64,000 nucleotides of DNA from a virus, in the IMG/VR virus record IMGVR_UViG_3300044701_003269, positions 1 through 64,000 of that record. The stretch is one strand, 5' to 3'. A program made the position numbers and the translations under genes. Positions 39,176 through 41,408 of this stretch are shown in pieces; the first letter of the stretch is position 1; every line of letters begins with the position of its first letter. The notes below the pieces were generated by a model that saw only the letters and a program-made list of their open reading frames with translations, ran no database searches and was not told where the DNA came from.

Positions 39176-39502
39176 ATGGGAAAGCATTATCTTCTTAACT
39201 TATATGGATGCTCGTTTGTCCTTTTGGACGACGAGCGTTGTCTTATAGACTTATTAGAAAACGCAGCAGTTGCAAGTGGTGCTACTGTGATTCAGACTAT
39301 CTCGAAGAAGTTTGAACCACAGGGTGTTACTGTAATTTGTTTGTTATCGGAAAGTCATATTAGTATTCATACTTGGCCTGAGGAAGGTAAGGCAGCGGTG
39401 GATGTATATACCTGTGGTGATTGCAATCCCAAGATTGGATGCGACATTATCATTCACCAACTATCTGCATCTAATCACACGCTTAGTTACATAGAGCGTT
39501 GA
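39176..39502 (+). CDS. speD: Pyruvoyl-dependent S-adenosylmethionine decarboxylase proenzyme family
   Basis: GKH, FEPQGVT, LSESHISIHTWPE, DVYTCG. Confidence 0.9.
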   Translation: MGKHYLLNLYGCSFVLLDDERCLIDLLENAAVASGATVIQTISKKFEPQGVTVICLLSESHISIHTWPEEGKAAVDVYTCGDCNPKIGCDIIIHQLSASNHTLSYIER

Positions 39503-40097: not shown

Positions 40098-40297
40098 TGA
40101 CATACGAAGAGTTTTTGGATATGCCAACAACTTTTATGGATGACATGCTTAAAGTGGTTAATATTAAAAACAAATATCGTTTAAAGTTTACAGAAGAAGA
40201 AACAGAAATTAATCACCATCTTTTAACTTATTGGGAAGAAATGAAGTTAAATGAGATGAGACATAGATTTGAAAAGTGTTGGGAGATAGAGGAATGA
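40097..40297 (+). CDS. Hypothetical protein
   Basis: TGATG coupling. Confidence 0.6.
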   Translation: MTYEEFLDMPTTFMDDMLKVVNIKNKYRLKFTEEETEINHHLLTYWEEMKLNEMRHRFEKCWEIEE

Positions 40298-40497
40298 AAT
40301 CCTTTCAAGAATTCTTATCTGAAGAAGAGAAATCTTCAAAAAGAACTGCTGGTTATATTAATGAACCAAAGGGAAATGAGAAGTGCTCTAACTGCAATAT
40401 GTGGAGACCACCGAACGCTTGCACTGCAGTGAGTGGTAAGATCTCACCCGATGGTTGGTGCAAGTGGCATCAATATAATAGAAAGAACCAAGATTAA
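40294..40497 (+). CDS. High-potential iron-sulfur protein (HiPIP)-like with a capsid-targeting-like N-terminus
   Basis: Y..PKGNEK-CSNC-x8-C-x4-GKISPDGWC; N-terminus MKSFQEFLSE. Confidence 0.8.
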   Translation: MKSFQEFLSEEEKSSKRTAGYINEPKGNEKCSNCNMWRPPNACTAVSGKISPDGWCKWHQYNRKNQD

Positions 40498-40512: not shown

Positions 40513-40563
40513 GTATAACATTTTACAAACCTACTTGACTACATAGTTCAACGGGTCTATTAT
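40513..40563 (+). promoter_or_regulatory. NtcA site plus sigma70 promoter
   Basis: GTA-N8-TAC at 40513-40526; TTGACT(40535)-N17-TATTAT(40558). Confidence 0.7.
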
Positions 40564-40570
40564 GACCTTA

Positions 40571-40666
40571 CGTTCATCGGAGAAATCCGACGCAAGTAGG
40601 ACGGCGGAACGGTACGTTCATTCGCTATTCGCAAATAGCGAACGCAAACCGCCCGAAGGAACGGGG
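40571..40666 (+). ncRNA. Tandem glutamine riboswitch (glnA/Downstream-peptide class)
   Basis: Two units CGTTCA...ACGCAA...GGAACGG, each with an internal hairpin; upstream of a YRG peptide gene. Confidence 0.8.
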
Positions 40667-40697
40667 CCTAAAAATCTCATTCTGGAGGAAAATCCTA

Positions 40698-40835
40698 ATG
40701 GCTAAAGTAGTATACCGTGGCATCGAATATGATACCCAGAAGCGTCTGGAGTATCAACAGCAAATGATGCAGCAACCCCAACAGTACAACGAAACCTATC
40801 GTGGTGTTAAGTTCGTAAAGGAGGGACATAAGTGA
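40698..40835 (+). CDS. DUF4278-like YRG-motif peptide, 45 aa
   Basis: MAKVVYRGIEYDT...TYRGVKF; GGAGG RBS. Confidence 0.8.
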   Translation: MAKVVYRGIEYDTQKRLEYQQQMMQQPQQYNETYRGVKFVKEGHK

Positions 40836-40933
40836 TGCAAAAACTCAACGTACTTCAACTCATTAAAGAGCAAAAGCAAAAAGAGCAACGTCGTCACCAG
40901 GCACTGCTTGCAAACGCAGGAGCAGGAAAGTGA
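40835..40933 (+). CDS. 32 aa basic helical peptide (IF7/IF17-like?)
   Basis: TGATG coupling; LIKEQKQKEQRRHQALLANA. Confidence 0.55.
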   Translation: MQKLNVLQLIKEQKQKEQRRHQALLANAGAGK

Positions 40934-41016
40934 TTGCTACCATTGCAGCTATTGCAGGTGCATCAACAGCATTCATTTATCTAATTTATTTTGAAGTTCT
41001 ATTGCTAAACAAGTAA
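40930..41016 (+). CDS. 28 aa membrane peptide
   Basis: GTGA coupling; IATIAAIAGASTAFIYLIYFEVLLLNK. Confidence 0.45.
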   Translation: MIATIAAIAGASTAFIYLIYFEVLLLNK

Positions 41017-41174
41017 TGGATAATTACCATTACCACTATGATGATGCGGACAAGGACAGTAGAGGTCCTGCTTGTTATCTTCTAACATATCGAGGATGTC
41101 GCTATTGGTCTTGTTATCGCATTCATCTAGTGCAATGGTTTGAAAAAGTTTTTAAATACGACAGGGAGGATTGA
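41016..41174 (+). CDS. 52 aa peptide with an LTYRG motif
   Basis: TAATG coupling; YLLTYRGCRY. Confidence 0.55.
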   Translation: MDNYHYHYDDADKDSRGPACYLLTYRGCRYWSCYRIHLVQWFEKVFKYDRED

Positions 41175-41199
41175 CACCTCCCTTTTTTTTGTCTATAAT
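41164..41199 (+). terminator. Terminator with embedded sigma70 promoter
   Basis: GGGAGG/CCTCCC plus T run; TTGACA(41171)-N17-TATAAT. Confidence 0.7.
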
Positions 41200-41222: not shown

Positions 41223-41408
41223 ATGAATAGAGAAAAGCTTAAGTTGATTGTAAGAAATCTTGAGTCTTTGGTAGAATGTCTTAAAGAAGAAATTAATTCT
41301 GATATCGATACTGATATTAAAGACCCATATTACGAAGAAATTAAAACCTACTTAACTGATTACGACGAAGTGTTTTATGACGGAGATGAAGAAGACTATG
41401 CAAGATAA
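41223..41408 (+). CDS. Hypothetical protein
   Basis: Downstream of promoter; overlaps thyX start. Confidence 0.65.

Follow-up and report, generated by a model that had tools for sequence, protein, structure and literature searches.

A cyanophage cassette that combines an NtcA-type box, a probable composite glutamine-riboswitch RNA and four small overlapping genes, including a helix peptide with relatives in host genomes

Here, we report the analysis of a cassette of approximately 680 bases in IMG/VR virus record IMGVR_UViG_3300044701_003269, a 174-kb contig. The window, by which we mean the whole analyzed stretch of 64,000 nucleotides (nt; positions 1 to 64,000 of that record), comes from a T4-like cyanophage and also carries a wcaG RNA, a PhotoRC-II RNA and a tRNA cluster. 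The cassette is located between speD (39176-39502) and thyX/phoH (41377 onward), and the same slot holds a homologous cassette in the phages S-PM2 and S-RIM32. It is a self-contained unit that extends from promoter to terminator and includes an NtcA-type box, glutamine-riboswitch RNA and four small genes, the parts of which are, in order (coordinates in the window, all on the + strand; aa, amino acids; ORF, open reading frame):

40513..40526, +: NtcA-type box GTA-N8-TAC (GTATAACATTTTAC), read from the sequence, ending 8 nt 5' of the -35 hexamer
40535..40563, +: sigma-70-type promoter, TTGACT (40535-40540), 17 nt, TATTAT (40558-40563); 10/12 in a promoter scan
40571..40612, +: RNA unit 1, with CGUUC (40571-40575), P1a hairpin (40577-40590), CGCAAGUA (40591-40598), 5' strand of the inter-unit helix GGACGG (40599-40604) and GGAACGG (40606-40612)
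40615..40663, +: RNA unit 2, with CGUUCA (40615-40620), P1a hairpin (40621-40642), CGCAA (40643-40647), 3' strand of the inter-unit helix CCGCCC (40649-40654) and GAAGGAACG (40655-40663)
40684..40689, +: Shine-Dalgarno (SD) sequence GGAGGA of ORF1, 8 nt before the ATG
40698..40835, +: ORF1, 45 aa, DUF4278 family, with two YRG motifs and a Gln-rich middle
40835..40933, +: ORF2, 32 aa, predicted basic helix peptide; ATG at 40835, alternative GTG at 40832, start overlapping the ORF1 stop
40930..41016, +: ORF3, 28 aa, hydrophobic, one membrane-span-like segment; GTG start overlapping the ORF2 stop
41016..41174, +: ORF4, 52 aa, acidic N-terminus followed by LTYRGCRYWSCY...; start overlapping the ORF3 stop (TAATG)
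41163..41190, +: intrinsic terminator, 7-bp stem (41163-41183) and T run, from a promoter/terminator scan

All these parts (box, promoter, two CGUUCA...GGAACG units, four ORFs and terminator) had been listed in a preliminary description, prepared from the sequence alone, and each was found where that description placed it. The transcription start predicted from the promoter, at about 40570, would be the first base of the RNA element. At each junction between the four ORFs, the stop codon of one overlaps the start of the next (GTGATG, GTGA and TAATG, in this order), and the loop of the terminator contains the stop codon of ORF4. At the ribosome-binding site of ORF1, AGGAG is kept in S-PM2 and S-CREM1; in phage DSL-LC02, a terminator lies directly 3' of the ORF2 homolog.

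Each of these parts is conserved in related cyanomyovirus DNA, which comprises at least 119 IMG/VR loci and four named phages. The IMG/VR loci were found by a pattern scan for the junction between the two RNA units, with a pattern that is biased to one junction sequence, and were classified with custom scripts. The counts of upstream regions, layouts and alignments given below are among the matches listed, that is, drawn from these at least 119 loci; because the sequences are related and not independent, shuffle controls overstate significance.

An exact GTA-N8-TAC occurs within 100 nt of unit 1 in 52 of the 77 distinct upstream regions of at least 100 nt, the background rate in the same loci being 0.00039 per nt. 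Most of these boxes (41 of the 52) start 58-61 nt 5' of unit 1, just upstream of a TTGACT/TATAAT promoter. In a smaller class of 7 regions, the box lies at -38 or -39 instead, and those inspected by eye are without TTGACT. The box was also seen by eye in S-PM2, S-CREM1, S-RIM32 and DSL-LC02. The NtcA site noticed earlier next to the -35/-10 promoter is borne out to this extent, as a putative box at a conserved position. Across the whole window, GTA-N8-TAC occurs 23 times, compared with 8.9 +/- 2.8 in shuffles (0/100 reach 23), in keeping with the numerous NtcA sites that have been reported for the genomes of cyanomyoviruses (PMC3037559).

The leader RNA matches the type 1 glutamine riboswitch model RF01739 at 40569-40667, with 37.2 bits against a gathering score of 35. 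This match is a chimera: its 5' half comes from unit 1, its 3' half is contributed by unit 2, and a 52-nt insert lies between them. Taken alone, unit 1 and unit 2 score 26.0 and 27.6 bits, respectively, both below 35. Neither unit belongs to Glutamine-II (RF01704, the Downstream-peptide model); this assignment was rejected, as 33 bits are required and unit 1 reaches 17.7 bits and unit 2 reaches 24.0 bits. The scores of the single units fall below the cut-off because each lacks one strand of the E-loop: in all 28 aligned compact sequences, unit 1 keeps CG(C/G)AAGUA but its GGAACGG is not preceded by GAA, and unit 2 contains GAAGGAACG but is without the GUA strand. Thus, of the two tandem aptamers proposed in the preliminary description, two units are present but not two complete aptamers, and of the two models suggested there for a check, the composite passes RF01739, whereas the single units fail both RF01739 and RF01704.

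The two half-cores appear to be connected by a helix. For 22 distinct strand pairs, taken from 116 parsed loci, the strand that follows GUA in unit 1 and the strand that precedes GAA in unit 2 have a mean paired fraction of 0.816, compared with 0.704 +/- 0.021 when strands are re-paired among loci (0/5000 re-pairings reach 0.816). With the whole named structure placed on the alignment of 28 sequences (A10), 93.8% of the cells pair, against 85.0 +/- 0.6 in shuffles (0/500 reach this value), and only 31-52% pair when the partners are slid along the same alignment. Changes on both sides are found at 4/8 pairs of the inter-unit helix (P2), for example, at columns 39/99 (AU 17, GC 7, GU 3) and 46/91 (GC 9, UA 5, AU 2), as well as at 5/5 pairs of P1a in unit 1 and 6/9 in unit 2. 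Among 61 distinct P1a hairpins of unit 1, 56 have at least 4 bp. In the window, the bridge would join G40599-G40604 with C40649-C40654, A40601 standing opposite C40652. Together, these data support a leader that consists of one composite sensor made of two half-complete cores and predicted to bind glutamine.

In most of the related loci, such as S-RIM32 (L004, 986-1205) and DSL-LC02 (L003, 1311-1481), the hairpin of unit 2 closes around a whole gene of 49-64 codons. This split form accounts for 74 of the 113 parsed loci, and the compact form, without the nested gene, for the remaining 39; the window is of the compact form. The stem ends around the nested gene keep at least 4 bp in 62/62 distinct pairs, across inserts of 138-195 nt and with differing stem sequences. 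The start codon of the nested gene lies in the 5' strand of the stem, and its last codons (..DAND) and stop are encoded by the aptamer core. Sixty-six of the encoded proteins were aligned and share two invariant cysteines; 49 match phrog_504, 7 match phrog_13397 and none matches Pfam. The nested gene of S-RIM32 (995-1180) is unannotated. A free-standing homolog of 61 aa is present in the same record outside the window (G000:C1:116450-116590; locus L256, 1498-1683; E 1.7e-8), with no CGUUCA or GGAACG flanks and with a different C-terminus.

For each of the four small ORFs, conserved relatives occupy the corresponding position in other phage contigs, in agreement with the preliminary description, which had listed them as coupled genes; the homologs in S-PM2 are p190 and p191. 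ORF1 by itself scores 19.1 bits (E 0.0017) with the DUF4278 model PF14105, below the cut-off of 25.3 bits, and matches phrog_5049 at 3e-11; of its aligned family members, 44/44 match PF14105 at E <= 0.01 (best 2.9e-7), which supports the placement of this two-YRG peptide in the DUF4278 family. A search of the Protein Data Bank (PDB) with the ORF1 family profile returned just two chance matches (E 0.17). Residues 18-31 of ORF1 (40749-40790) form a glutamine-rich middle, QQQMMQQPQQ, which is found in window-type ORF1 and is lacking in the other ORF1 subfamilies.

ORF2 is a member of a helix-module family, the 54 distinct modules of which form a gapless alignment and share the positions N, L, I, K/R, K and A-Q. 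The direct match of the window ORF2 to the hidden Markov model (HMM) of this family is weak (E 0.0081 among 1797 window frames), near-identical copies reach E 0.003-0.004 (921 ORFs), and the window peptide is linked to the family through intermediates. Judging from these alignments, ORF2 is a real, conserved peptide with a predicted helix. The ESM Atlas contains it letter for letter but returned no usable neighbour, a PDB sequence search gave no match, and tblastn against 50,697 phage records yielded none at E <= 1, probably due to the low-complexity filter. For ORF3, 11 distinct relatives occur at the same place, ending in ...IY.E...LL.K, with near-identical copies in loci L100 and L074. ORF4, which is 63% identical to an unannotated ORF of S-RIM32 and has 19 distinct relatives in two subfamilies, is the second YRG protein of the cassette. 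NCBIfam searches with ORFs 1-4 and Pfam searches with ORFs 2-4 gave no match. Much of the window layout is reproduced in loci L056, L071, L074, L100 and L111.

The YRG and helix modules recur in several arrangements among the 102 listed loci with enough downstream DNA. In the most frequent one (32/102), of the phrog_545 type, a single protein starts with the helix and continues with two YRG motifs; next in frequency is the window layout of two YRG motifs with a separate, overlapping helix ORF (25/102); one YRG motif fused in front of the helix was found in 4/102, the helix only in 1/102, and two YRG motifs with no helix ORF in 20/102. The helix is accordingly fused to YRG motifs, in either order, in 36/102 loci and separate in 25/102. 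Gene 206 of S-CREM1, labelled hypothetical, is also a YRG-then-helix fusion. An AlphaFold2 model of the fused helix-YRGx2 form (alignment of 31 sequences) is of low confidence overall (mean predicted local distance difference test score, pLDDT, 68.7; predicted template modelling score 0.34); only the helix at residues 3-23 is confident (block pLDDT values of 86 and 83). Because the helix module is fused in both orders and is also coupled as a separate ORF, the arrangements argue that the YRG and helix modules would act as one unit.

Relatives of ORF2 are also present in cyanobacteria. A profile of 15 sequences with that of the window first (A7) matched 9 of 401 cyanobacterial genomes at E <= 0.001, all of 1.7-2.9 Mb. 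The host helix peptides start with MNTL..I(K/R) and are 33-58 aa long or longer, and one of them consists of the helix followed by two YRG motifs. Directly upstream, an RF01704 riboswitch was detected above the cut-off (35-54 bits) at 10/10 host loci. In 4 of these 10 loci (L246, L247, L253 and L254), an exact GTA-N8-TAC ends 7-19 nt upstream of the Glutamine-II aptamer, where a repressor-like box has also been reported in Prochlorococcus MED4 (PMC6212724). Hosts that use the type 2 riboswitch have been reported to be without full-length inactivating factors (PMC6212724, PMC6316151). Because the relatives of ORF2 sit behind RF01704, in genomes without an IF7 match, the phage appears to have copied the peptide set of the hosts with the type 2 riboswitch. 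Our preferred reading, to which we assign a probability of about 0.75, is that the cassette is a phage-borne, rearranged copy of the glutamine-riboswitch gene unit of small-genome hosts, with a composite sensor and four coupled products.

A different reading had been put forward in the preliminary description, which took ORF2 for an IF7/IF17 helix and ORF1 with ORF2 for a split IF17; the pair would then bind host glutamine synthetase (GS) and inactivate it when nitrogen is plentiful. We collected an IF7/IF17 set from the ORFs behind type 1 riboswitches in the scanned genomes, which gave 19 cyanobacterial proteins with the IF7 core, spanning IF17 forms of 150-157 aa (e.g., in Leptolyngbya sp. 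PCC 6406) and IF7-like forms of 46-56 aa. In 13 aligned IF7-like forms (A6), three arginines, R24, R37 and R44, are invariant and match the three reported to be essential for GS inactivation (PMC6316151). The HMM of the IF7 core (19 sequences) ranks the window ORF2 first of 1797 frames (E 0.0022, 14.5 bits; next frame, E 0.12), and 0/2000 shuffles reach this score (maximum 13.3 bits). The alignment covers 18 residues, is the same one that the preliminary description had pointed to, and places QKQKEQRRHQALL of ORF2 on the IF7 consensus around the invariant NRQ..ML. The position of ORF2 directly behind a DUF4278 gene, the IF17 order of modules (YRG, then helix) fused in 4 of the 102 listed loci and in S-CREM1, and the combination of an NtcA box with glutamine RNA, which mirrors the control of gifB (PMC6212724), also speak for a split IF17.

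Against it, the likeness does not extend to the family. Profile-profile comparison with hhalign gave a probability of 0.5% (E 0.12) for the 54 helix modules against IF7 and of 0.17% (E 0.34) for 15 ORF2 sequences including that of the window. With the IF7 HMM, only 4/54 distinct modules beat their own shuffles, all of them near-identical to the module of the window; its close relatives score 4-6 bits, and the remaining modules are at noise. None of the 10 host helix peptides rises above shuffles with the IF7 profile, and in the reciprocal comparison, none of the 19 IF7 cores does so with the helix profile. The window ORF2 matches just the middle one of the three invariant arginines, in a column that is occupied by leucine in most of the remaining helix family. 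The IF7 profile was found in 135 of the 401 cyanobacterial genomes searched and in 0/9 of those that hold helix peptides, and the commonest fused form has the opposite order, with the helix first. What survives of the earlier assignment is the local likeness of the window clade at 14.5 bits; homology of ORF2 to IF7 at the family level is rejected. We read the likeness as a clade-limited resemblance in a Q/K/R-rich helix, and functional mimicry of IF7 seems unlikely, with a small but real chance of being correct. The corresponding scenario, that in the window clade the detached helix peptide came to resemble the IF7 core and ORF1 with ORF2 became a two-chain stand-in for IF17 that shuts down host GS at high glutamine, is likewise doubtful. 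Were it true, the phage would supply a GS inhibitor that its host no longer makes, given that this host group appears to have lost IF7-type factors. Hence, the regulatory part of the original interpretation, an NtcA-type box with glutamine RNA, is supported, and the split IF17 for the most part is not.

Two further alternatives concern the RNA and the small ORFs. The leader could be a conventional tandem in which two glutamine aptamers, each complete and independent of the other, sharpen the response (make it more digital), as in the glnA tandems of marine bacteria; it does contain two CGUUCA...GGAACG repeats, each with its own covarying hairpin, tandem glnA RNAs have been published (PMC2864571), and bacterial loci with 2 to 4 complete units side by side exist. 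However, the complementary gaps of the two units in all 28 compact sequences, the passing score of the chimera where each unit alone falls short, and the covariation of pairs between the units led us to reject two independent complete aptamers, which we consider improbable. ORFs 2 to 4 might also be non-functional, being either chance frames or leader-type frames whose translation serves regulation alone. At 28-52 aa, they are very short, neither Pfam nor NCBIfam returned a match for them, and the tblastn search with ORF2 came back empty. Such an explanation is very hard to reconcile with the gapless alignment of 54 helix modules, in which conserved positions stand among variable ones, with the distinct relatives of ORF3 (11) and ORF4 (19), with the 63% identity of ORF4 to its S-RIM32 counterpart, and with the presence of the helix module both in host genomes and fused in frame to YRG motifs.

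The preferred reading, a rearranged host unit with a composite sensor, also has several observations against it. At two inner positions of the inter-unit helix, A.C or C.A mismatches predominate, and the P1 strands are invariant, which makes side-by-side units with a bridging helix indistinguishable from a fully nested fold. Neither unit reaches the Rfam cut-off alone, and the composite exceeds it by just 2 bits. Minimum-energy folding of the leader gave no clear anti-SD structure (z -1.72 and 0.21). Among the 102 loci classified by layout, 20 have no YRG or helix ORF within 110 nt. In the canonical geometry of NtcA activation, the box is centred near -41.5 and replaces the -35 hexamer. The centre of the window box lies about 51 nt before the predicted start, beside a full TTGACT -35 hexamer, and in our view, its position matches neither that of the usual NtcA activator nor that of the host repressor.

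If the cassette is indeed such a rearranged host unit, its expression might proceed as follows. Host RNA polymerase would start near 40570 from the cassette's own sigma-70-type promoter, with the putative NtcA box, at which NtcA may activate or repress, just upstream. Unit 1 would then provide CGUUC, a hairpin and the AAGUA strand, and unit 2 a second hairpin, the GAA strand and GGAACG, the two half-cores being tied together by the inter-unit helix GGACGG 40599-40604 / CCGCCC 40649-40654. By analogy with the gifB leader of Synechocystis, which has been tested (PMC6212724), binding of glutamine may free the ribosome site of ORF1, after which ORFs 2 to 4 would be translated through stop/start coupling. 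The cassette is predicted to encode a YRG protein of the DUF4278 family, a peptide with a single helix like those found behind the Downstream-peptide RNA of hosts, a membrane-type peptide and a second YRG protein. Most likely, the four would act together on the same target as the riboswitch-controlled YRG and helix peptides of the host; GS is the leading guess from the literature. The function of the host riboswitch-linked DUF4278 peptides was called unclear in a review (PMC6316151).

Among the closest known systems is the leader of gifB (IF17) in Synechocystis sp. PCC 6803, where an NtcA-repressed promoter and a type 1 riboswitch (RF01739), described as a glutamine ON switch, precede a DUF4278 protein (PMC6212724). 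The cassette shares the order of NtcA-type box, glutamine-riboswitch RNA and DUF4278 gene, with the ribosome site soon after the aptamer. It differs from gifB in that its sensor consists of two half-cores joined by a helix instead of one complete aptamer, its box lies upstream of a full -35/-10 promoter and not over it, and its YRG protein is without the IF7-type C-terminal part and the three arginines; furthermore, coupled to the YRG gene are ORFs for a helix peptide from a different family, for a membrane-type peptide and for a further YRG protein. A second likeness is to the Prochlorococcus MED4 yfr6 / PMM1846-type units and other picocyanobacterial Glutamine-II leaders, which also control small peptides, of the same two module kinds, by a riboswitch (PMC6212724, PMC6316151, PMC2864571); in MED4, a type 2 switch and an NtcA site accompany a DUF4278 gene (PMC6212724). 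Unlike the phage leader, whose units stay at 17.7 and 24.0 bits on the type 2 model, these host leaders use a single type 2 aptamer; box and aptamer are 44 nt apart in the phage, with the promoter in this interval, and 7-19 nt apart in the hosts.

The tandem glnA RNAs of marine bacteria (PMC2864571) likewise have CGUUCA...GGAACG repeats, two in a row, but their units each match the full-core pattern, in contrast to the complementary halves of the phage. In SAR116, SAR86 and Pelagibacteraceae (marine Alpha- and Gammaproteobacteria), type 1 glutamine aptamers stand in rows of 2 to 4 complete copies ahead of ORFs of 427-495 aa (loci including L130, L132, L135, L143, L165, L176 and L200).

Glutamine riboswitches of cyanophages, tandem glnA RNAs (PMC2864571) and NtcA sites of cyanomyoviruses (PMC3037559) are already known. 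Glutamine riboswitches have been noted in T4-like cyanophages (PMC9964418, PMC9602691) and in the marine phage Melnitz (PMC9004378). In S-CREM1 (OP535465), the annotated 99-nt glnA riboswitch, listed with a score of 44.0 in Table 4 of PMC9964418, corresponds to the same composite of two units. In their accessible text, the papers on S-CREM1, the T4-like cyanophages and Melnitz list the RNA only and do not describe its two-unit make-up, the box or the downstream genes (PMC9964418, PMC9602691, PMC9004378). In a search of literature that covers few subscription journals, neither the downstream phage genes nor the helix module, its host link or the half-and-half sensor with its inter-unit helix were found to be described.

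On the preferred reading, phages would have copied the RNA, the NtcA-type box and two host peptide modules, and kept the latter together, either fused or coupled. The half-and-half sensor would represent a distinct way of building a riboswitch. Should NtcA report 2-oxoglutarate and the RNA report glutamine to the phage, the cassette would provide a two-input read-out of the nitrogen state of the host during infection. With its small size, it offers a compact, testable system for finding out what these peptides bind.

The surroundings of the cassette include two further small ORFs. Upstream, a 73-aa ORF (40276-40497) resembles a small iron-sulfur protein of the HiPIP type (Pfam HIPIP, 21.1 bits where the cut-off is 22, E 3.9e-4; NCBIfam iron oxidase Iro, E 1.7e-9, far below the cut-off), and phage S-SRM01 carries DNA about 81% identical to it. 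Downstream, a perfect TTGACA-17-TATAAT promoter at 41171-41199, which overlaps the terminator of the cassette, precedes a conserved acidic ORF of 61 aa (41223-41408; phrog_878, 3.8e-9) that overlaps the start of thyX and follows the cassette in many related loci.

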